Part shown: in pieces, positions 1,557 to 29,949 of the stretch
How positions within the stretch are numbered: position 1 is the first letter of the stretch
Layout: every line of letters starts with the position of its first letter
Assembly: GCA_965223265.1 (NCBI GenBank)
Contig: OZ244999.1
Coordinates: 4,160,001 to 4,224,000 of the forward strand
DNA length: 64,000 bases
Direction of reading: 5' to 3'
Source of the DNA: Planctomycetota bacterium
Lineage (GTDB): Bacteria > Planctomycetota > UBA8108 > SXIK01
Notes under the pieces: model-generated
Told to the model about the DNA's origin: nothing
Databases searched by the model: none
What the model saw: only the letters and a program-made list of their open reading frames with translations
Program-made: the position numbers and the translations under genes

Positions 1557-4500
1557 ATGGGACGCACACAACGACTCTCGACGTGTCTCTTGGCGTTTCT
1601 TGTGGGCAGCTCAGCGGTAGTACTTCTTGCAGGGGCACCCCCGCCGCAGTGTCCGGACGATCCAGTGAAGTGGTCGCAGCGTCCAGGCGATTCCTGGTTC
1701 CTTCCATCGAGCATCGATTGGTCTGACCAGGAGCCCAACACGGTCGCCGCAGACGACTTCATCTCAGATGGACGCCCCATCACGGGGGTCAGGTTTTGGG
1801 GATCCAACATGCCGCCGGAGGATCCCTTTGGCGATATCGACGGCTGGCTGATCAGCTTTCACGCCGACGACGGCGGTGATCGACCGACAGAGCTCCTCGG
1901 GCTCTACTTTTGTCCGGTGGACAAAGTTTCAGTGCAGCCGGCCGCGGTCGGCAGCTGCTTCGGCACACGCACCATTCAAGAGTACTGCGTGCAGCTGGCG
2001 GACTGCTGCCCCGTTCACATCGACCGCCCCGATCCGCGCGATGGCAGCACACCGGCACGGCGGAAGTTCTTTGCCGAGGTGAACCAAATGCGCTATTGGA
2101 TCGACATCCAGGCTGTGACTGGGCACACCTATGATGAGAACTGCGAAATCGTGACGACAGGGCACGAGACGAGCGAGGTGTTCTGGGCCTGGCACAAGGG
2201 GCCAGGCCTGACTCTCTCGCCCCCGGCCTTCGGTCAGGTGGAAATGGATGGTGAGGATTGGGTCTACAGCTGGGGTCTCGACTTCCCGGCGTTTTGCACT
2301 CAAGACGGCAACATGGCCTTCGAGCTCCTGGCGGGTGGGCCGCCAAAAGAGTGCCGCGGGCCGAGAGTCCAGTTGGACTTCGAAGATCTACCGCTCGGCA
2401 TGGTCTACAACTCGGGCGACACGTTCGTGACGGGCGGCGCGGTAGTCTCCGTGGGCGACTTCGCCTTTAGTCCGGGTGCCTGCACCGGCGGTACGACTAG
2501 CGGTGCGGCAGAAGTTGTCAGCGGCGGTGCGGCGTGCGGCGCTGGAAAGGAGTTGGGAATCAACAACGTTACCCTAGAGTTTGATTTTGGCAGGCGAGTC
2601 GAAGACATGTCGCTTCGCTACGGCGAGTTCGGCGGCACGGTGAGTCTCGAAATCAACGGCGTGTGCCGCGTGGCGCAGAACTTCGCGGACTTCGATGGCA
2701 CCACTCTCGGCGGCGTTGTGATCTCCGCGCTGGATTTCGGCACGCCAGGTCAGAGCTGTGGCTGGCTCAGATTCGCCGGCGACTTCAACTCTTTCACCAT
2801 TGGCGGCCAGGAACTTTGGATCGATGAGGTCTGCGGCTGCGAAGTCCCGAACAAGTGTCCAGAACGACGAGCCCAAGCTGACTTTGAGGACTTGGCTCCG
2901 TCCACTGTGTACACCGCCGGTGAGAGTTTCTTGACGGACGGCGCCGCAGTCACCGTCGGTGAGTTTCACTTTGCGCCTGGTGCCTGCACGGGCGGCACGA
3001 CCAGCGGCTTCGCCGAAGTGGAAACCGGGGGACTGGCGTGCGGTTCAGGCAACGAGCTCCAGGTCAACAACGTCACGCTCGATTTCGACTTCGGAAGCGC
3101 GGTGGAAAACCTCGGGCTGCTCTACGGCGAGTACGGCGGCACCGTCAGTCTCGAGATCAACGGTGACTGCCGCGTCGTCGCCAATTTCGCTGACCTCGAC
3201 GGCGCGACGCTCGGCGGCGTCGTGGTCTCAGCCGTTGACTTCGGCGCTGCTGGACAAAGCTGTGGCCGACTCTCTTTCGCCGGCACCGTGGACTCGTTCG
3301 TCATCGGTGGTCAGGAACTTTGGATCGACGAAGTGTGTGCCTGTCCTCGACCGAAGTGTCCTGACGTGAACCAGACGGACTTCGAGGATCTGGCGCTCGG
3401 CATGACGTACAACTCTGGCGATTCCTTTGTGACCGATGGCGCCACGGTGTCCGTCACCGACTTTTTCTTCAACCTCGGCGTCTGCGGCGGTGCAACGACG
3501 AGTGGTTTCACCGAGGTAGAAAACGGCGGCGTCGCCTGCGGTGCGGGCAACGAACTCCAGGTCAACAACGTCACTCTGAATTTCGACTATGGCACGCCGG
3601 TGGACAACGTTTCGCTGCGCTTTCGCTGGCTTGGCGGTGAGACCAGCCTCGAAGTCAACGGCGACTGTCTCGTCGTGCCAAACTTTGACGCGCTCGATAC
3701 AGTCATTCTTGGCGGTGTCGTCGTCTCCGTGAAGGGCACGCCAGGTCTTTGCCAGCGTCTGTCGCTTTCCGGTACGGTGAGTTCCTTCGGCATCGGGGGT
3801 CAAGAGCTCTGGATCGATGATGTCTGCACGTGCCCGGTTCCAGCGCTCTGCCCGGACTTGTCGGTGAAATGGTCCCAACCTCCCGGGGAGGCGTCGTGGC
3901 TGTCGCCGTCGAGTCTCGACTGGCTCGATATGGAGCCGAACATCGTTACGGCGGACGACTTCATCTCCGACGGGCGTCCGATAGCAGGAGTCCGTTTTTG
4001 GGGATCCAACTTGCCGCCCGGGGACCCGTTCGCGGACATCGATGGCTGGCTCGTCAGCTTCCACGCTGCCGACGAGTCCGATGCACCGACGGAGCTGCTA
4101 GGGCTTTACTTCTGTCCAAAGGAACGCGTGACGATCAGGCCAACGAACATCGGCAGCTGTTTCGGCAGTCGTGTCGTTCACGAGTACTGCGTTCTTCTCG
4201 CCGACTGCTGTCCCGTTCACATCGAACGCCCGGATCCGCGCAACGGAGTCGCACCCGCGTGGGCTGATCTGTTCACAGAGGTCGAGGGGTTTCGCTATTG
4301 GCTCGACATTCAAGCTGTCACGGGACACACCTACGATCCGGACAGCTGTGAGCTTGTGATCACCGACAAAGCAGCCGACGAGGTCTTTTGGGGCTGGCAC
4401 CGGAGTCCGGGGCTCGACCTCGACCCACCGGCGTTCGGCCAGGTTCACATGGACGGGGAGGACTGGGCTTACTCATGGGACCTCGACTTCCCGCAGTTCT

Positions 4501-20669: not shown

Positions 20670-22151
20670 CATGCGTGATCGGTTAGCCGTAAGCTCCATC
20701 GTAGTCATCGCTTACGACTCGAGCGATTCGTGCGTATAGAAAAAGAGGCCAAAATCTCGGACACTTCGTGACTCACCAAAGAAACGGAGTGAAGAGATCA
20801 TGGCCACAAGGAAGTGTATCGAACTACGATCCTGTCTCAAGAGCCTCTTTCCCGACAAGTTGATCCGCGATGAGTCTCGAGCGAGTGGTTTTGTGCTCCG
20901 GGAGCGAAAGATCAGGGCGGTTCCGTTCTTTTGGACATTGGTCCTGGGCTTTGGGGTTGGATCGGAGCGGACGATCTCTGCGCTGCGTCGAGCCTACGAA
21001 CGCTCGACGTCGTCGACCGTTGTTCCGTCCTCGTTCTACGATCGTTTCGACGCCAGTCTTGTGCGCTTTCTGAAAGCTGCGGTGAAGCGATCGTTGGCAA
21101 CCTTTCAGGCATCGTGGACTGAAATCGAGGAGCGCGTCGGAAAGTTTACGGACTTGATCATCGTTGACTCCACAGTGATGAAGCTTCACGAAAAGCTCAG
21201 AGGATCGTTCCCAGGGTGCCGAACGAACTCAGCGCCGGCTGCGGCGAAACTTCATGCAGTCCTCAGTGTGCGCGGCAAAGGAGGCTCGACGGTCGCTCTC
21301 ACTTCGGAGCGAAGTGCGGACCTGCGAAAACTTCGCACAGGTCCGTGGGTTCGAGACCGCCTTCTCCTCTTCGATCTCGGCTACTTCAAGTGGCAGCTCT
21401 TCCATCGCATCAGGAAAAACGGTGGCTTCTTCCTGACTCGATTGAAGCAAAACGCCAACCCGACAATTACCAAAATCCATCGCAGTGTTCGCGGCAACTC
21501 GATCCCCCTCGTGGGGGAGAGACTTCAAGACGTCCTACCTCGATTGAAAAGAGAAACTCTCGACGTTGAGATCGAAGCCTCGTTTGCAACCCGCAAGCAC
21601 CGAGGCCGAGCGCGTCGCGCTCACGAGCGTTTTCGACTTGTCGCCATCCGCAACGAAGACGACGGCCAGTATCACCTCTACGTCACCAACGTCGAACACG
21701 ACGATCTCATCGCCGAGGAGATCGCCAACGTCTACCGCTATCGCTGGGAAATCGAACTCATCTTCAAGGAGCTAAAGTCCGGCTACCGAATGGACCAGCT
21801 GACGAGCCGGCGCCCCCACGTGGTGGAAGCGATGATCTACTGTGCAATTCTGACACTTGTCGTCAGCCGAGAGCTTCTACGCCACCTTGCCTCACGAGTC
21901 CGCAGCGGTGCCGAGCGAGTCGCTGCGGGGCGTTGGTGGAAGCTTCTGGCGAACTACGCTCAGGAGCTTCAACTCCTCGTCGTTCGACCACGCCGAGACG
22001 CTCACCTCGCCGCTGGACTCGTCGACACCTTCCTGCACGAAATTGTCGACCCTCATACTGACAGACGCCCACTCTTGAGTCAGGTGTTTCGTTGATGTGG
22101 CGCCGTAAGTTTCATCTCTACAGAGCTTTGCGCGTTATCCGATGCCGCATG
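20670..22151 (+). mobile_element. IS4-family element (ISH8-like), 1482 bp
   Basis: Imperfect TIRs catgcgtgatcggttag / ttatccgatgccgcatg; 10-bp TSD gcccagccca at 20660-20669 and 22152-22161. Confidence 0.92.
20800..22095 (+). CDS. IS4-family DDE transposase
   Basis: IVDST, KLH, LFDLGY, YRYRWEIELIFKELK (YREK signature). Confidence 0.95.
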   Translation: MATRKCIELRSCLKSLFPDKLIRDESRASGFVLRERKIRAVPFFWTLVLGFGVGSERTISALRRAYERSTSSTVVPSSFYDRFDASLVRFLKAAVKRSLATFQASWTEIEERVGKFTDLIIVDSTVMKLHEKLRGSFPGCRTNSAPAAAKLHAVLSVRGKGGSTVALTSERSADLRKLRTGPWVRDRLLLFDLGYFKWQLFHRIRKNGGFFLTRLKQNANPTITKIHRSVRGNSIPLVGERLQDVLPRLKRETLDVEIEASFATRKHRGRARRAHERFRLVAIRNEDDGQYHLYVTNVEHDDLIAEEIANVYRYRWEIELIFKELKSGYRMDQLTSRRPHVVEAMIYCAILTLVVSRELLRHLASRVRSGAERVAAGRWWKLLANYAQELQLLVVRPRRDAHLAAGLVDTFLHEIVDPHTDRRPLLSQVFR

Positions 22152-22161
22152 GCCCAGCCCA

Positions 22162-24337
22162 TGGGTATACGACCTGGGGGGCGAAGCGTGCACGACAGAG
22201 GGCAATAACATCAAGGCCTTCGCTGTTGACAATACTTCAGAGTACCAGCCAACAACGAGCAACTGCCTATTCGTTTTCGAAGAACTCACACTCCAGAATC
22301 TCAGTGACCCAACAGACCCGGATGGTTTTGCTTCTGATCCTTCGCTCTATCTCGACGCCACCATCGCAAATGCCTTTTACAACACCAATGTCCTGCACGA
22401 CATCTTATATCGATACGGGTTCAATGAAGCAGCTGGAAACTGGCAAAACGACAACTTCAGCCGGGGTGGATCTCCGGGAGATCCCTTACACGTACAATAC
22501 ACTCCGGATATCGCATCCAGCAATTTCTTTTCGTCCTCTCAAGATGGTCTAATATCGACCCTCGATCTTGGCATCAATGCAATCATATCAATCGGTCGTT
22601 CAACGATCCCCCTTCCCCCAGATGCAGTCAGCCCCATCGCGGCTACCATAGCCGACTTTAGTCAAGATCAAGACGACAAACTCGATCTTGTGATCGCAAA
22701 TCATCTCTCTGGAAATGTAACTCTCTTTCTCAATGACGGAAACGGGGGGTTCATTCCCGAGCCGAGTTATTCCACCTTCGGAGTGTCTCCAACCGACATT
22801 GTCGCTGGGGTTCTCGACAGTGACGTCTACGTTGATCTCGCGGTAACGCATGCAACCTCCAACTCCGTCACAATTCTCCTAAACGACGGAAACTCCCCGC
22901 CTGGATTCTCCGCGACGGTCTATGTCCTTCCGGGATCTGACTATCCTGTTTCACTCGCTACGATTGACCTGGATGGAGACAGCGACCTTGATTTGATCGT
23001 CGCAAACCGCGATTCTCAAAACGTGACGCTACTGGAAAATGTCGGGTCGTCGTTTTCGATCCATGCGCCCATAGATATACCGGGGAGCCCAACGAGCGTT
23101 TGCGCAGCAGACGTTGACGGAGATGCGGACAACGACGGCATTTTGGCAATCCAAGACGTCGTCGGAAGCAGCGTCTGCGGCGCGACGCCGGCAGACGCTG
23201 TCGTTGTACTCGAGAATTCTGGGGGTTGGATTTTTTCTGTGGGAAGTGTAACGTGCATCGAGCCCGATAGAGACCCCAGTTCAGTAAGTGTCGCTAATTT
23301 TGACGGATACGAAGACGGAGACGAAGACGTCGACATAGTTGTCGCGCAAAGCGGAACTGAATTCGTCGACATATTCGACAACGACGGGGACGGCCAATTT
23401 TCTCTTCTCAGCTCAGTCTTCCTAGGGGGAACGGCGGTTGCAGCCACTTCGGTCGCCCACACGCCGACCGGAGCCCATGAGGAACTTAATCTAAGCTCTG
23501 AGACTAGACCCACCGACGAGCTGCCGGATGTGAGCGCTGTTTCATCAGCCCCAGGAACGTTGGCCAGCCGTATTAACCGAAGCACTAGTAAGAAGCGCGG
23601 ATTATTTGCTAGAGTTACTCAAGAAAGCCTTAACGCCCAAAGTGATTTTGAGTTGACAGATCTGGGAACAATTCACGACGTAGTTGCGGGGAACCTGGCG
23701 GGGGGAGCAGACCCCGATGTTGTCGTTATTTCGCAGCAAGGGTGCGAAGTTTTTACAAATGACGGTATTGGTTCGTTTACTGCTCCCGGGATTCATTCCT
23801 TCAGAAGCGGAGCTTTGGATCTCTCAGTCATTGCACATGAGCTCAGCCACGGCGTAGTTTCCCGCCTGACCGGAGGAATATTCAGGCCCGGAGGCGGAGC
23901 TTCTCAAGCGTCTGGCCTAGTCGAAGGCTGGGCAGACGCCATGAGCCTCCAATTGACGGGGCCACGCGACGGCGACAGCCCTCGAGGTATGTTCACGTTT
24001 TGGAGCGGCCATTTGCCTTCGGGATCCGGAGTTCGCATCCTCCCGTACAGCAACGATCAATCTGTAAACCTGTGGACGTTCGGAGATCATGAACTCCTAA
24101 TTAGCGAGGACCACGCTGGGCCGTTCGGCACTGGGCATGCAGCTGGAGAGATCTGGGCAGTCACGCTTTGGGATCTCTACTGGCTTCTCATCGGTCTCTA
24201 CGGCCAGAGCGGCGATCTATACGCGGCGTTTGGCTCAACGCTCGGCGGAGAAAACGTGTCACTTAAGCTGGCCATCGACGCACTAAAGTTTGCGCCCGGA
24301 AACCCCGCTACTTATGTGACACATCGGAATGCCTACC
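22162..24337 (+). pseudogene. M36 protease segment 3 (catalytic domain with inserted FG-GAP/VCBS repeats)
   Basis: Open from 22162: TTEGNN, NAFYNTNVLHDILYRYGFNEAAGNWQNDNF; DLDGDSDLDLIVAN-type repeats; IAHELSHG (HExxH), EGWAD, HAAGEIW. Confidence 0.9.
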
Positions 24338-24578
24338 TGCTGAGTCCCACAAACTCTGGCTCGTGAGCAGCGACGAGTCTCAGATTCACTGACCCGGAAA
24401 CGCCCCGGCATACCCCGCCGAACCGACCGTCCGATCATACCCCGCCTACCCCGCGCCCCCCGTTCGACGCTGCGCCCTGGACCTTCGCTCGACTCCTCGC
24501 CTCACCTCGAGTAAAGAGGGGAGCGGAGAGACCGGTGTTGGTGCACTTCTCTCCGCAAGTCCCCGTACGGAGAGAGCG

Positions 24579-25247
24579 ATGCTACCCCATTTGGTCAACG
24601 CGATACAGAGCTATGGCGAAGCTGTTCGCCGCCGTGAGATCCAGCCGACCTGTAACCGCTGCCCGAATTGCAGCGGGGAGCCAGATCGGTTCCGCTACCG
24701 CGGTCACCGAGAGCGCGTGTTCCTCGTTATCGTCAGGCGTCTGGTCGAACCTGTCCTGTCGCTTCTGAGTCGCTGGAAGTGTCCTCTGTGTAAGCGCTCC
24801 TTCACGCTCTACCCGCCCTTCGCGCTGCCGGGGAAACGCTACGTTCGCGACTGCGTTTTCGATCACGCTCGGCGCTACCTCCAGATCGACGAGCTTTCGT
24901 ATCGCGAAGCCGTCAAGGTCGAACACATGCCCGTCTTCCACGAGGGTGACGACAGGGGAGCGATCGACGAGCGCAGCCTCGCGCACTCAACACTTCATCG
25001 TTGGCTTTCGTTCTTTCGCTCTCTCAACGCCACGCTCCTGGAGGCTCTCCGCCTCATCCGAGAGCGCTCGGCGAGGTCCGACATCTTCCGCAAGGTCTTC
25101 GCCGTCCGTCCAGCCAAGTACCGAAGCGAATCACGGCGGGACACTCTCGTCGCGGCACTTCGAGCTCTCTCGATCGACCAGGTGTTCCGTTCCCTCTTCG
25201 GCCGATCGATCTTCCCCGACTTGGCAACCTCCGCAGCCTGGGCGTGA
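24579..25247 (+). CDS. Transposon ORF1: zinc-ribbon/HTH protein (DUF6431-like)
   Basis: CPNC...RWKCPLCKRSFTLYPPFALPGKRY; LAHSTLHRWL. Confidence 0.65.
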   Translation: MLPHLVNAIQSYGEAVRRREIQPTCNRCPNCSGEPDRFRYRGHRERVFLVIVRRLVEPVLSLLSRWKCPLCKRSFTLYPPFALPGKRYVRDCVFDHARRYLQIDELSYREAVKVEHMPVFHEGDDRGAIDERSLAHSTLHRWLSFFRSLNATLLEALRLIRERSARSDIFRKVFAVRPAKYRSESRRDTLVAALRALSIDQVFRSLFGRSIFPDLATSAAWA

Positions 25248-25287
25248 GCGAGAATCACGCCTCGCTCGCCCCATGCGAGGTGTGATC

Positions 25288-26850
25288 ATGAAAGCGAAAG
25301 ATCTCGATTGGGCTATCTTCTGGGCGGCTCTTCTCCAGCCCGTCGTCATCGGCGAGGTGCCGGAGGAGGAAGCCGCGCGATTTCTCCGCGAGCTCGCCAA
25401 AGAAGAGCGCATCTTTCCCGACGGATCGCGACGCAAGCCGGCTCTTTCGACCCTGAGGCGGAAGCTTCGCATCTATCGCGAGGAGGGCTTCGAGGGTCTT
25501 GCCCGCAGGCCGCGAAGCGATCGCGGGAAACCGCGTGCCCACGGCAAAGAGCTCGTCGAGAAAGCCGTCGAGCTGAAGCGTGATCAGCCACTGCGCTCCC
25601 ACTTCGCCATCAACAAGTTCCTCCAGGCTCAGCACGGAAAGACCATTCCGCGTTCGACCCTCTTCCGCTACCTCAAGATCGCCGGCGCGACGCGGCTGAA
25701 GCTCGGTGTCGAGAGGAGGAAAGTCCGGAAACGCTGGACTCGTGACTCCACCCATGCCCTCTGGGTCGGCGACTTCGCCGATGGACCCTACGTGCTGCAC
25801 GACGGCGAAGTCGTCCCCACCTTCCTCTGTGTTCTCATCGACTGCTACAGCCGCTCGCTCGTCGAGGGGCGCTACTACCTTCGGCAAAATCTCGAGGTCT
25901 TGATCGACTGCTTGCTGCGGGCGTGGGCCAAGCACGGTGCTTCGGACGAGCTCTATGTCGATCAGGCGAAGGTCTATATCTCCAAAGCGCTCAAGGCGGC
26001 ATGCCTTGCCGTTGTCACCCGGCTCATCCATCGCGGCAAGGGCGATCCGCCACCGGGTGGTCTCGTCGAACGACTCATCGAGACGATACAGGGCCAGTTC
26101 GAGGCCGAGGTCAGAGCCGGCGAGATCCTCACTCTCGACTCGCTCAACGGAAGCTTCGATTCCTGGAAGACCGTGGCCTACCACCGCCAGGTCAACACCG
26201 AGACCGGCGAAACACCCGAGGCACGAGCCGAGGCCGGCCTCAAACGGCCTATCCGACACGTCGACATTCAGCGCGTCACCGAGTTCTTCATGTGCCGCGA
26301 GACGCGGCGCGTTCACCCGGACTTCTCCGACGTCCAGCTCGATCGCCGCTTCTATCGCGTCGACAAGAGTCTGCGCGGTGACAAGGTCGAAGTCCGCTAC
26401 GATCCCTTCTCCGCGCCCGACACGGTTCTCATCTACTCCAGCAACGAAGAGTACCTCGGAAAGGGCGTCCTTCACGAGCGCGAAGAGGGCGAGGACGCCG
26501 GTGCTCCCGCCCCTCCCGCCAAAGCGAAGCACAACTATCTGGAGCTTCTTCGCCGTGAGCACGACGAGGAGCTCAAGAAGCGCGCCCAGGGGATCGACTA
26601 CCGTCGTGTCATCGCCTCTCGCCAGTGGCCCTTCACCGACTTCGCATGCCTTCTCGGCCGGCTCATGGGGCGCAAGGGCGCCCTCTCGAGCTTCACCGCC
26701 GAGGAGCTCGAGGAACTCAAGAAGTTCTACAACCGTACTCCCAGCCTCACCGAAGTCCTCTTGCTGAGGGCCTTCGAGAAGGCTCCGGAGAAATCCATTC
26801 CCTACATCGCCTACGAGCTTCAACGACTCGCAGGCAGAAAGGAGGACTGA
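25288..26850 (+). CDS. Transposon ORF2: DDE transposase (HTH, rve core, Mu-like C-terminus)
   Basis: RPRSDRGKPR, LWVGDFADG, IDCYSR, LYVDQAKVY, GLVERLIETIQ, VEVRYDP. Confidence 0.9.
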   Translation: MKAKDLDWAIFWAALLQPVVIGEVPEEEAARFLRELAKEERIFPDGSRRKPALSTLRRKLRIYREEGFEGLARRPRSDRGKPRAHGKELVEKAVELKRDQPLRSHFAINKFLQAQHGKTIPRSTLFRYLKIAGATRLKLGVERRKVRKRWTRDSTHALWVGDFADGPYVLHDGEVVPTFLCVLIDCYSRSLVEGRYYLRQNLEVLIDCLLRAWAKHGASDELYVDQAKVYISKALKAACLAVVTRLIHRGKGDPPPGGLVERLIETIQGQFEAEVRAGEILTLDSLNGSFDSWKTVAYHRQVNTETGETPEARAEAGLKRPIRHVDIQRVTEFFMCRETRRVHPDFSDVQLDRRFYRVDKSLRGDKVEVRYDPFSAPDTVLIYSSNEEYLGKGVLHEREEGEDAGAPAPPAKAKHNYLELLRREHDEELKKRAQGIDYRRVIASRQWPFTDFACLLGRLMGRKGALSSFTAEELEELKKFYNRTPSLTEVLLLRAFEKAPEKSIPYIAYELQRLAGRKED

Positions 26851-27641
26851 TGTTCACCACCCATTTCAAGATGACGACGCAGCCCTTTCTCGAGCGCGCG
26901 CCCGTCGAGCAGATTCTTTCCGACGAGCGCATCACCCAGGGACTCGCTCGACTGGAGTACCTCGCCAAGTCGGGCTCGATCGGCCTGGTGACCGGACTCA
27001 CCGGGGTGGGGAAGTCGTCTCTGGTGAAGCTCTTCGTGCGCTCGCTGAGCCGCAACCTCTACGACCCGATCTATCTCTCGCTGACCTACGTCGGGGCAAA
27101 CGGCATTCTGAAGCTCCTGGTTTCCAGCCTCGGCGAGCAGCCCCGCCGTGGCAAGGAGCGGCTCTTCCTCCAGATCCTGGATCGCGTCGGGGCGAACGAG
27201 CACACGACAATCCTCGTCATCGATGAAGCGCACCTGCTTCCTTCGGAGTCGCTCACCGATCTGAGACTTCTGGTCAGCTCCGGACTCGAGGACGGCCCGC
27301 CATTGAAGATCCTCCTCAGCGGACAAGAGACCCTGAGAAAGGAGCTTACCCGAGCGCGCCACGCCGATCTCACGCATCGGCTCAGCGTGCGCTACCACGT
27401 GCCGCCGCTCAGCAAGGAGCAGACGGTCGAGTACATCGACTTTCAGATGCGCGCAGCCGGCGCCTCGCAGAAAGTCTTCGAGCCTGAAGCGAAGTCGCTC
27501 ATCCACGACTACTCAAGCGGCGTGCCGCGGCGCATCAACAACATCGCCACCGCCTGCCTCATTCAGGCCGCGAGCAAGAACGTCCAGAAGATCTCCGAGG
27601 CGCTCGTCAACGACACCGCCCCCGAGTTCCATCTGCCCTGA
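26850..27641 (+). CDS. Transposon ORF3: ExeA/MuB/TnsC-like AAA+ ATPase
   Basis: Walker A GLTGVGKS, Walker B ILVIDEAH, SGVPRRINN; TGATG coupling to the transposase. Confidence 0.9.
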   Translation: MFTTHFKMTTQPFLERAPVEQILSDERITQGLARLEYLAKSGSIGLVTGLTGVGKSSLVKLFVRSLSRNLYDPIYLSLTYVGANGILKLLVSSLGEQPRRGKERLFLQILDRVGANEHTTILVIDEAHLLPSESLTDLRLLVSSGLEDGPPLKILLSGQETLRKELTRARHADLTHRLSVRYHVPPLSKEQTVEYIDFQMRAAGASQKVFEPEAKSLIHDYSSGVPRRINNIATACLIQAASKNVQKISEALVNDTAPEFHLP

Positions 27642-27660
27642 GAACGGAGACTGACGCGCC

Positions 27661-27954
27661 ATGTTCCACAAGACCCTGATGCCTCGAGTCAACGACTTCG
27701 CCGAGTATCCTGAGCTCGCCGTTTTGATGACCCTCGCGACGAACCTCGAGATCGCCCTGTTCGCTCTGAACGCCGCGTACCCCGATCTCGACTTCGACTA
27801 CACGCAACGCTCCTCCTACACCGAGCAAGACGCCTATCTCGCCGCCTTGGGCGCTCAGCTGCGAGCGCTCCAGATCGTCCTCGAAGAGTATCTCGAGAGC
27901 CTGCAACGAATCCGATATTTGAAGGCGCCGAGCGGTGGAGGTGGCGTCGCATGA
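27661..27954 (+). CDS. Transposon ORF4: small helical protein of unknown function
   Basis: 97-aa ORF co-oriented inside the element; ATGA overlap with ORF5. Confidence 0.6.
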   Translation: MFHKTLMPRVNDFAEYPELAVLMTLATNLEIALFALNAAYPDLDFDYTQRSSYTEQDAYLAALGAQLRALQIVLEEYLESLQRIRYLKAPSGGGGVA

Positions 27955-28268
27955 CAGGACGATTCTCCGGCAAGCTCCTGCGGTCGTTGAGAAACGATAT
28001 ACCGATCGCGTGGCTCCTCGATCTGCTCGGCGTCCCCGCGAAAATCTCCGAGGGCTACGTGCGCTTCCTCTGTCCGCGGTGTCGCGAATTCAACACCGCG
28101 ACGAAGGCGTCCACCAACCTCGCGCGTTGCTTTCGCTGCGAGACGAACTTCAACCCGATCGACCTGGTCATGATCGTCAAGCGGCTGAATTTCGTCGACG
28201 CCGTCGAGTTCCTCGCCGAGCTCCGCGATCGTCGCGGTGACGCTCGCGCCACGCCTCGCCCTTCGTGA
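27951..28268 (+). CDS. Transposon ORF5: stand-alone DnaG-type (CHC2-like) zinc-finger protein
   Basis: FLCPRC...ARCFRCETNFNPIDLVMIVKRLNFVDAVEFL resembles the primase Zn-binding domain. Confidence 0.7.
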   Translation: MTGRFSGKLLRSLRNDIPIAWLLDLLGVPAKISEGYVRFLCPRCREFNTATKASTNLARCFRCETNFNPIDLVMIVKRLNFVDAVEFLAELRDRRGDARATPRPS

Positions 28269-28273
28269 TTCCC

Positions 28274-28306
28274 CGGGTCGTCGTGCCGTCCGGGACACGA
28301 CGACCC
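28274..28306 (+). terminator. GC-rich hairpin after the transposon operon
   Basis: gggtcgtcgtg-N10-cacgacgaccc 11-bp stem; no U-tract. Confidence 0.35.
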
Positions 28307-28408
28307 GCGCCTTCTCGCCTCGCAAATCGCATCTCGCACCCGCGAATCAGCACCATGCCATTTAATCTGGGATTTCCGCGCCAGATACTGTGGGACTTAG
28401 CACCTACC

Positions 28409-29949
28409 TGATCGCAGACAGCCTGACTTTTTCGGGATCGCATCTCACCCTCATCTGGGAAGCATTCGCCGGTCGAGGCCTTGGACACGGAGCATGTGAC
28501 AACTGGGACGTCAATTCGAGTCAATGCAACCCACATGATCCTGCTGGTCAAGTCCTGGAGGACTTTTCCCTCCCCCCTCCTGGAACCATCCGCGGAAAAG
28601 TATGGGAGGCAGAGGACTGCGACCTGAACCCACTCGGCACTCTTTCGGGTTGGGTTGTGTACCTCGACCTCAACAAGAATAATTCTCTAGATCCTGGAGA
28701 ACCGACGGATTCCACAGATGCATCTGGGCAGTATGAGTTTTCCGGCCTAGGCCTTGATTCTTATTGGGTCGGACTTGAGATGCAAACAGGCTGGAATTTG
28801 GTGGCCCCAATCCCCGAATTTGGGCCGCCAACTCGGATATGGAGAGACCCAGATCCGAGCATTTTCTACACCGACGTCTGGGCTGTTGGGGATATAGCTC
28901 TCGTTGGTCACAGCGAAAACAAAGGCGTAAGCATAATAGATCTAACGAAAATCTATCAAGGACACATCGATCATGCGCTGATCACTCGATGGGCAGACGT
29001 AGACTCCTCCGGACAAAACACCAACACAAATACGATAAAGGACGTAAAAGCAGAAGGCAACATCGCTTTCTTTGCCAGCGACAACGGTGGCGGCGTCTAC
29101 ATCATAGACATCTCCAACCCCATGAACCCCAAAAAAATCTCGCAGGTGACATCACAAAATGGGGCTTTCGACAAGGTGCACAACGTCTCAATCGACGATA
29201 GTTTTCTTTATCTAGCTAGCGATTTGACAAGTACCGTTCCGATCTTTGACATCAGGGATCCGAACATTCCAGTCTTACTCCATACGATTGACACAAATGG
29301 AGGAGTGGTCCACGACATTACTGCCCTGGACGATCGACTTTATGTTTGTGATCGAGAGACCCCTGGAAATCCAGGAGTATCTGGAAAAATCCACATATAC
29401 GATATTGCACGGAATGCGGTTGGAGACTTTGTGTCCGCCACGTTCGTGACTTCATTCACCGCCGGAGACCAAACTCATTCTTGCTGGCCGACAAAGAACG
29501 GAGATTATCTCGTCGTCTGTAAAGAGGACCTAACTAATTCGGTCGAGGGGAACAAGGTCGATATTTGGAGAATTGATATCTCTCCTCCACAGAAGAAAGC
29601 GACAATTACTCGACACCCGAACTCAGCCACCACCGCGCACAATCCGGTAGTCGAGGATGATACCCTGTATATTTCTTGGTACGAAGCCGGATATTTTAGC
29701 TATGACATCTCGAATCCGGAGGCGCCGAGATTTCTCGGTTTAGTGGATACGTTCCCACAGGGAGCTACGGCACAGACCGGTGTTGGTTGCTGGGGAGTCT
29801 ACCCTTTCATTGATCAGGGCTGGACCATCGCGACAGATACAGTTTTCGGACTTCATGCAAATCGTAGTGATACTCGGCATTTTGTCCCGAACACACAGGG
29901 AGGTCTCCATGAAAACCATGATTTTTATGTTTCTCAAGATTGTCCGTAG
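28409..29949 (+). pseudogene. M36 protease segment 4 (end of M36, SdrD-B-like domain, LVIVD/choice-of-anchor-B-like propeller)
   Basis: IADS...IWEAFAGRGLG; GWVVYLDLNKNNSLDPGEP...TDASGQYEFSGL; YIIDISNP, IFDIRDP, AHNPVVE...ISWYEAG, CWGVYPF. Confidence 0.88.

Follow-up and report, generated by a model that had tools for sequence, protein, structure and literature searches.

What does a compact transposon do with a free-standing zinc-binding domain of the primase type? The question is raised by an element of five open reading frames (ORF1 to ORF5) at positions 24338-28402 of a 64,000-nucleotide stretch of DNA (hereafter the window) from a Planctomycetota bacterium (assembly GCA_965223265.1, contig OZ244999.1, positions 4,160,001 to 4,224,000 of the forward strand). 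A first-pass annotation, made from the sequence alone, described a complete transposon in which ORF1, ORF4 and ORF5 may form an uncharacterised targeting or regulatory module, with the primase-like ORF5 perhaps directing insertion to replication forks or single-stranded DNA. Our analysis makes it very probable that this is an intact and recently active transposon resembling an insertion sequence (IS), and that it belongs to a widespread family in which a MuA/IS481-like transposase and a MuB-like ATPase are accompanied by a DUF6431-type zinc-ribbon protein encoded upstream and a protein with a DnaG-type zinc-binding domain encoded downstream, ORF4 having been added within a lineage.

Boundaries, copies and core machinery of the element

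The complete transposon is 4065 bp long, begins with TG and ends with CA, and has termini that form a 26-nt imperfect inverted repeat (81% complementary), flanked on both sides by the target-site duplication cctacc (Table 1). When the whole genome (9.18 Mb on one contig) was searched, ten copies spanning the full 4065 bp were recovered, each listed with 100% identity; eight of them score 7331 bits and the other two 7327 bits. A script that located the ends of each copy found an exact 6-bp duplication at all ten, different at each. Because ten identical copies each have a duplication of their own, the boundaries of the element are exact and it has moved recently. The copy in the window has split a host gene, since excision in silico of the element together with one copy of the duplication joins the flanking ORFs into a single ORF of 1062 codons.

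Public contigs are available for four runs of one sample, and all four contain a unitig spanning exactly 24338-28402 (in one run, to 28403). The depth of this unitig, 23-122 versus 2-12.6 in the flanks, is what a multi-copy repeat would show, but depths of this kind cannot be read as copy numbers. An empty site or a circle joint was not seen in the contigs of the four runs, where its absence is uninformative. Contigs from two to three of the runs match the element up to 25552, 26128 or 26957 and then diverge into unlike sequence; these may stem from copies that are rearranged or have diverged, or from other organisms present in the sample.

Table 1. Features of the element and of its insertion site, in window coordinates.
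Feature	Position	Strand	Basis
Interrupted host gene (5' part 22690-24337, 3' part from 28409)	22690..29949	+	Rejoined reading frame
Left target-site duplication, cctacc	24332..24337	.	Flank sequence, copies compared
Left terminal inverted repeat, starts TGCTGAGTCCCAC	24338..24363	+	26-nt repeat pair; boundary set by ten copies
Two putative transposase-binding sites, left end, direct repeats	24344-24359, 24377-24392	+	RTCYCA-N7-TGR match
Direct repeat CATACCCCGCC (two copies), untranslated left end, 5' of ORF1	24409..24451	+	Repeat search
ORF1, 222 aa, zinc ribbon CxxC...CxxC, possible helix-turn-helix, helical C-terminus	24579..25247	+	DUF6431 matches, alignment, model
ORF2, 525 aa, DDE transposase (HTH_32/rve/Mu-transpos_C)	25273..26850 (start possibly 25288)	+	Domains, alignment
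ORF3, 263 aa, AAA_22 (MuB/TniB/GspA-like) ATPase	26850..27641	+	Pfam, PHROG, alignment
ORF4, 97 aa, helical, clade-specific accessory protein without family	27661..27954	+	Family scans, relatives
ORF5, 105 aa, stand-alone DnaG-type zinc-binding domain	27951..28268	+	Pfam, alignment, model
Two putative transposase-binding sites, right end	28381-28396, 28358-28373	-	RTCYCA-N7-TGR match
Right terminal inverted repeat, ends GTGGGACTTAGCA	28377..28402	-	Repeat pair; same right terminus in relatives
Right target-site duplication, cctacc	28403..28408	.	Flank sequence, copies compared

The core of the element consists of the transposase and the ATPase. ORF2 matches Mu-transpos_C above the cut-off (32.7 versus 21.7 bits), and it also matches HTH_32 and, slightly below the cut-off, rve; its catalytic residues D167, D230 and E266, in a DD(35)E arrangement, are invariant across 21 transposases, and its best PHROG match is also a transposase (phrog_310, E 8.9e-29). 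In ORF3, the Walker A (G49-K55) and Walker B (D125-E126) motifs are invariant in 22 ATPases, and the protein matches phrog_296, 'DNA transposition protein', with an E value of 2.6e-25. Weak matches of the core to TnsB (E 0.009), TnsC (E 0.42) and the V-K TnsC of PADLOC (E 0.0011) were also obtained. The five element proteins, the only ones scanned, gave no match to resolvase, TnsA or TniQ families in Pfam or NCBIfam. ORF2 and ORF3 overlap by 1 nt and ORF4 and ORF5 by 4 nt, so that translation is probably coupled within both pairs. The direct repeat CATACCCCGCC upstream of ORF1 is a possible regulatory site; a promoter scan returned 0 sigma-70-like sites, and Rfam 0 matches.

Two sites of about 22 bp are present at each end of the element. 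The pattern RTCYCA-N7-TGR that they share matches five times in the window, and four of the matches are at the element ends, two per end and inverted. It should be noted that the number of matches as such is within chance (3.69 expected, and at least five reached in 30 of 100 shuffles). The end sites are credible because of their placement and because the layout recurs, by eye, at the ends of relatives. In these respects the first-pass annotation has stood up well: the exact TG...CA boundaries with cctacc on either side, the two related sites per end and the five genes were all recovered by comparison of the copies, ORF calls and domain scans, which also bear out its assignment to the plan of a transposase plus an AAA+ ATPase with multiple end sites, and its statement that cargo, resolvase, TnsA and a recognisable TniQ are missing from the five proteins.

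A family with a four-gene plan

In a library clustered at 50%, relatives of the transposase number 2325 at E <= 0.001, of which 219 reach E <= 1e-30. When one genome per species was scanned with a profile made from a nine-sequence alignment, 224 loci were confirmed. The genes present at the best 80 of these 224 loci were counted by comparing the window proteins with all ORFs using phmmer: 80 have ORF2, 79 ORF1, 78 ORF3 and 72 ORF5, and a single locus has ORF4, which is located there after ORF5. The usual map in relatives is ORF1, ORF2, ORF3, ORF5, on about 3.7 kb. Judged by gene content, therefore, the plan of the family is one of four genes, not five, and ORF4 appears as an addition of one lineage. 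The earlier idea of conserved accessory genes holds for ORF1 and ORF5 and has to be dropped for ORF4, as does the view of the five-gene operon as the family plan. Under the criterion set by the annotation itself, absence from most homologous elements, ORF5 survives and ORF4 does not.

According to the titles of their records, the best 80 loci are from Planctomycetota, Thermodesulfobacteriota, Chloroflexota, Cloacimonadaceae, Victivallales, Caldithrix, Bacteroidales and two archaeal bins, the assignment of bins being uncertain because many contigs are short. The 80 loci are not independent, since several genomes carry many copies; 32 distinct loci remained after a greedy filter. For the eight loci without ORF5, tblastn gave no match either. 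In six, the element is interrupted before the ORF5 position, by the end of the contig or by a second insertion, and the remaining two (L085 and L094) have space for the gene. At L085, an unrelated ORF of 116 aa occupies the fourth slot (3583-3933), indicating that this slot is exchangeable.

ORF4 has no Pfam, NCBIfam, PHROG or PADLOC family, and its best Atlas score of 0.79 is uninformative. Only two other relatives (86% and 58% identity) are present among 5.8 billion clustered proteins, and a metagenome scan added two loci: in one (L118) the order is ATPase, ORF4-like gene, ORF5, and in the other (L119) the ATPase gene is followed by an ORF4-like gene up to the contig end. In a related genome (G003), the ORF4-like gene is located 3' of ORF5, not before it. 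Relative to L118 and L119, ORF4 is 36% identical, compared with 86% for the ATPase, 75% for the transposase and 75% for ORF5, and the length of the protein and its YP(D/N)L motif are retained in its relatives, these two loci included. This pattern points to a real but fast-evolving gene that is confined to one clade, and its product would be a modulator specific to the lineage, with translation coupled to that of ORF5.

ORF1, one of the two conserved accessory proteins, has two CxxC pairs. Its match to DUF6431 (Pfam PF20020; 21.1 bits, E 2.8e-4) lies under the gathering score of 26.6, but among 30 Atlas feature matches 29 belong to the DUF6431 set, the top score being 0.99. Across 21 aligned sequences, C68 and C71 never vary, and C28 and C31 hardly ever do. 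In the model (predicted local distance difference test, pLDDT, 76), the cysteine pairs are separated by a long beta hairpin, and helices come after them. Genes annotated as DUF6431 also precede distant transposase/ATPase pairs on Streptomyces and Cupriavidus plasmids. ORF1 probably serves the element by binding its ends or as a regulator.

The ends and target sites of relatives could be compared in three other multi-copy genomes. In these, the right end reads ...AGAC(T/G)TAGCA and the left end starts with TCCTA..., the left terminus thus being TC and not TG (L054-L083), while the right end retains ...TTAGCA. An exact 6-bp duplication was found at 12 of 20 sites; inspection by eye of the other eight gave duplications of 7 bp at three, 5 bp at one, a mismatch at one and none at three. 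When the four genomes are pooled, 22 of 30 sites have an exact 6-bp duplication, and the three of the 30 copies without a matching duplication are as expected after recombination between copies. Among the 22 exact duplications, 14 have T at position 3 and 15 have A at position 4, a weak preference for a central TA that resembles that of IS481. For the IS481-family element ISRe46, duplication of NCTAGN is described (PMC6794481).

Two observations on the elements of Desulfoferrobacter suflitae may be added. On contig_18 of this species (L061, 6575-9106), a shortened ATPase gene is followed by a second transposase gene; one copy has apparently been inserted in another, and target immunity, if there is any, is therefore not strict. 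The D. suflitae element is 4.3 kb long, with about 835 bp from the left end to ORF1 (L054, 3447-4282), whereas the element in the window has about 240 bp there.

The primase-type domain and its possible role in transposition

ORF5 is the component that the first-pass annotation had called primase-like on the basis of its letters. Its match to Pfam PF01807 is under the cut-off (22.0 versus 24.9 bits). Its cysteines C41, C44, C60 and C63 are invariant, and 20 columns are invariant among 34 sequences. The model (pLDDT 89) matches the Geobacillus DnaG structure 1d0q in Foldseek (E 2.5e-4, TM 0.65) and in VIA-align, with a Z score of 10.9 and a root-mean-square deviation of 2.2 A over 92 of 102 residues. 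The runners-up in VIA-align are the Aquifex primase 2au3 (Z 10.2), T4 primase (5.6) and Twinkle (4.9), followed by the next unrelated structure at 3.5. The predicted structure thus covers the whole fold of the DnaG zinc-binding domain with its four zinc ligands, in agreement with the earlier call. ORF5 holds this domain alone, without the Toprim RNA-polymerase domain or the helicase-binding domain of DnaG. Relatives of similar size (57-184 aa) number 1314 among the 5.8 billion clustered proteins, and many of them lie on contigs some 4 kb long, as is the case for collapsed repeats.

Genes of the ORF5 type are also found outside the four-gene family. The genome of the element contains three more, 62%, 50% and 47% identical to ORF5, the first of which (L116, 9249-11479) directly follows an IstB ATPase gene (NF038214, 207 bits, cut-off 200). 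A plasmid of Desulforapulum autotrophicum carries an IS21-like transposase gene, istB and then a gene for a CHC2 protein 48% identical to ORF5. In 251 sampled genomes of the phylum, strong stand-alone matches (at least 66 bits) were present in eight; the weaker matches lie mostly in frames of about 570-1060 aa, presumably DnaG itself. In 11 ORF5-type contexts, the preceding gene encodes an AAA_22 protein in three, has no Pfam family in four and would lie beyond the contig end in three, and in one no ORF for the zinc-binding domain was called. Proteins longer than 184 aa that match ORF5 at E <= 1e-10 number 27, of which 24 have the zinc domain only or no family and three have rve in the precomputed Pfam assignments. 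A Pfam scan of these three identified two (P0301 and P0303) as IS3-type transposases with a C-terminal zinc domain, and rve domains only in the third (P0302). In P0303, the IS3 model scores 164.5 bits (cut-off 160), and the zinc-binding domain, at residues 388-469, is 54% identical to ORF5. The domain thus accompanies the DDE machinery of several families, which makes it unlikely that the function of ORF5 is tied to one kind of ATPase. Since they are found after IstB and AAA_25 ATPases and fused to IS3-type transposases, ORF5-type proteins look like a transposition cofactor that crosses family borders.

Three further arrangements were observed in the same genome. Upstream of the istB gene at L116 is a 375-aa ORF without a family match, and at L117 (6070-6761) an IstB fragment is accompanied by an ORF5-type gene with an in-frame TGA. 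At L116 11773-16808 (G000:C1:2473773-2478808), three tandem tyrosine-recombinase genes, whose products match Phage_integrase at E 2e-27, 3e-20 and 2e-33, are followed by genes for an AAA_25 ATPase and an ORF5-type protein, the match to the latter holding one TGA. This has the look of a recombinase-in-trio element that carries a helicase-like ATPase and a primase finger.

By homology, the transposase would bind the two sites of about 22 bp at each end, pair the ends and join their 3' ends to the target with a 6-bp stagger, while the ATP-bound ATPase would coat or mark the target DNA and activate the transposase, as MuB, TnsC and IstB do. Since the element has neither a second nuclease of the TnsA type nor a resolvase, movement would most likely proceed by copying, either through a copy-out-paste-in pathway or through a Mu-like replicative or repair pathway. 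To our knowledge, how copy-out and Mu-type transposons recruit host replication is poorly understood. The primase-derived domain is a concrete candidate for such a link because it is conserved family-wide and is found in three other transposase settings. The role that we tentatively rank first is one in which ORF5 would work on transpososome DNA, binding a single-stranded or branched strand-transfer or figure-eight intermediate and coupling it to host priming and replication. A role as a target adaptor is ranked second, and one as a pure regulator third.

The second of these roles corresponds to a module, comprising ORF5 with ORF1 and ORF4, that would select targets, ORF5 being an adaptor of the TniQ or TnsE kind that reads forks or single-stranded DNA on behalf of the ATPase; the primase-derived domain could then be a new kind of DNA-sensing adaptor instead. 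We consider this doubtful. It would be in keeping with the ability of the primase zinc-binding domain to read a single-stranded template, and with the presence of ORF5-type genes after three different kinds of ATPase. In Tn5053, as well as in CASTs (CRISPR-associated transposons), tniQ comes after the ATPase gene, and ORF5 occupies the same slot, directly 3' of the ATPase gene. PMC8649781 describes this plan in general terms. However, TniQ was not among the top 50 fold matches of ORF5, nor among those listed for ORF1, and gave no sequence match to ORF5, a result that does not exclude a relation, and the fusion of the domain to IS3-type transposases without an ATPase fits poorly with an adaptor for an ATPase. 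ORF4, moreover, is missing from 79 of the 80 loci. A complex prediction for the ORF3 ATPase with ORF5 scored 0.02 against a mark of 0.32 and speaks neither for nor against binding.

The insertion sites bear directly on such targeting. In the genome of the element, cumulative GC skew places the origin at about 7.95 Mb and the terminus at about 3.52 Mb, and relative to replication seven of the ten copies are co-directional and three are head-on (two-sided binomial p of about 0.34). The sites are dispersed, about half of them in long open frames. This distribution, from one genome with a clean GC skew, gives no support to the earlier suggestion of insertion at forks or single-stranded DNA, although ten sites are not strong evidence against either. 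In a second closed genome (G167; 4.4 Mb, 17 full ORF5 copies), GC skew taken at 20 places was scrambled, and the lack of a two-phase pattern suggests heavy rearrangement.

The third role, in which ORF1 and ORF5 would regulate expression or copy number from outside the transposition reaction, as repressors or antitoxin-like brakes, is in our view unlikely. Both are small zinc proteins of a DNA-binding type, there is a direct repeat upstream of ORF1, and two of the 80 loci dispense with ORF5, all of which such a regulator would accommodate. Against it, ORF5 is highly conserved, as its 20 invariant columns show, and a repressor belonging to one operon would not be expected in four transposase settings or fused to a transposase.

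Returning to the replication-coupling role, it may be extended to a broader one, in which free-standing primase zinc-binding domain proteins would be a hitherto unrecognised cofactor serving DDE elements across families (Mu/IS481-like, IS21-like and IS3-like), encoded separately or fused to the transposase. They would pass the branched intermediate on to the priming and replication machinery of the host, for example through an action in trans on host DnaG's catalytic domain. This extension is speculative, and we hold it with low confidence. If true, it would explain how elements without resolvase and TnsA finish the copying step.

Several points weigh against our reading of the element and of ORF5. 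With respect to the core, the rve match of ORF2 is slightly below its cut-off (31.2 versus 32.6 bits), and its best NCBIfam match, to IS481 (E 8.1e-30), reaches 104.3 bits where 224 are asked for. With respect to ORF1, the model gave nothing in Foldseek at E <= 0.001 and a best VIA-align Z of 4.8, which is noise level, and a helix-turn-helix at residues ~83-149 is suggested only by weak matches (Z 3.9). The mechanism as a whole, including DNA binding by the element proteins, is one that we infer from sequence, and ten identical copies cannot separate copying from cut-and-paste transposition followed by repair. The proposed coupling of ORF5 to replication is drawn from its predicted fold and the company of its gene; the ORF5-type gene after an AAA_25 ATPase, beside three tyrosine recombinases, represents a setting without a DDE intermediate, and ORF5 may be dispensable, given that it is replaced or missing at two of the 80 loci.

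The element nevertheless offers a good base for experiments, because it is intact, evidently active and present in ten copies, allowing reconstitution with four or five genes. The status of ORF4 as a lineage add-on narrows the experimental focus to ORF1 and ORF5.

Known elements compared, and neighbouring features

In the literature searched, no description was found of a set comprising DUF6431, transposase, ATPase and primase-finger genes (ISfinder and TnCentral lay outside this search), and the published DUF6431 accounts that were found are, by title or abstract, not about transposons. The four-gene family is thus apparently both widespread and undescribed, as the first-pass annotation had supposed for the gene set. 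The alternative is that the element is a plain member of the Tn6049, Tn552, IS481 or IS21 family, which would leave nothing new; we regard this as improbable in view of the comparisons that follow.

Of the named elements, Tn6049 and Tn552 come closest. Tn6049, a 3.5-kb transposon of Cupriavidus metallidurans CH34, is present in 12 copies and encodes a 'gspA' ATPase (PMC2864759), and a copy on a Pseudomonas plasmid is reported to have 12-bp inverted repeats and 4-bp repeats (PMC4739549). Like our element, Tn6049 is compact, free of cargo and multi-copy, and it has the same four slots: a small gene, an IS481-like transposase gene, an AAA_22 ATPase gene and another small gene. However, the core pair, which is all that the two share, is of low identity (21% for the transposase, 25% for the ATPase), and neither its first gene nor its fourth is related to its counterpart here, ORF1 or ORF5 (hhalign probabilities of 1.3% and 0.5%).

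Tn552 of Staphylococcus aureus encodes the p480 transposase, the p271 ATP-binding protein, the Bin resolvase and bla genes. It resembles the element in having an rve-type transposase with a small ATPase; ORF2 is 22% identical in its alignment to the p480 region (E 7e-8), and ORF3 resembles p271 at the profile level only (hhalign probability 77% over 83 columns). Its target duplications are also 6 bp (PMC3276174), and arrays of transposase sites of about 20 bp are described at both of its ends (PMC8649781). Unlike the element, Tn552 has a resolvase, inverted repeats of about 120 bp, cargo and a preference for res sites, and the Tn552 stretch that we examined has no DUF6431 or primase-finger gene.

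IS481 elements have a single gene, whereas ORF2 is accompanied by three or four companion genes. IS481 nevertheless provides the best NCBIfam match of ORF2, and a duplication length of 6 bp is common to both, with a weak preference for a central TA here. Against membership, ORF2 scores 104 with a cut-off of 224, far too low, and has a Mu-type C-terminal domain. The IS21 elements (IstA/IstB) share with our element a transposase with an AAA+ helper and repeated end sites, and pairs of the IS21 type carry the same primase-finger gene. Yet ORF2 reaches only 21.8 bits against NF033546 (cut-off 160, E 1.1e-4), and ORF3 13.3 bits against NF038214 (cut-off 200, E 0.051).

Mu (MuA/MuB) and Tn7/Tn5053 (TnsB/TnsC/TniQ) likewise combine a DDE transposase of the Mu-C type with an AAA+ target ATPase and several sites per end, and the likeness extends to matches with phage transposition families and to weak structure matches with TnsB, MuB and TnsC. 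Duplications of the Mu, Tn7 and Tn5053 type are 5 bp, compared with 6 bp for the element, which has only two sites per end and no specific attachment site, and whose five scanned proteins include no TnsA, TniQ, resolvase or phage protein. Elements with DUF6431, DDE and AAA genes on plasmids of Streptomyces and Cupriavidus necator are closer (about 30% identity), but they lack ORF5.

Finally, traces of other transposons were noted. In the genome of the element, pieces of another Mu/IS481-like transposase (HTH_32, rve_3 with Mu-C, and rve) are present at L116 3265-6332, apparently a decayed relative of the element. In the window, a 431-aa ORF located just upstream (20800-22095, + strand) has, by eye, the look of an IS4-type DDE transposase.

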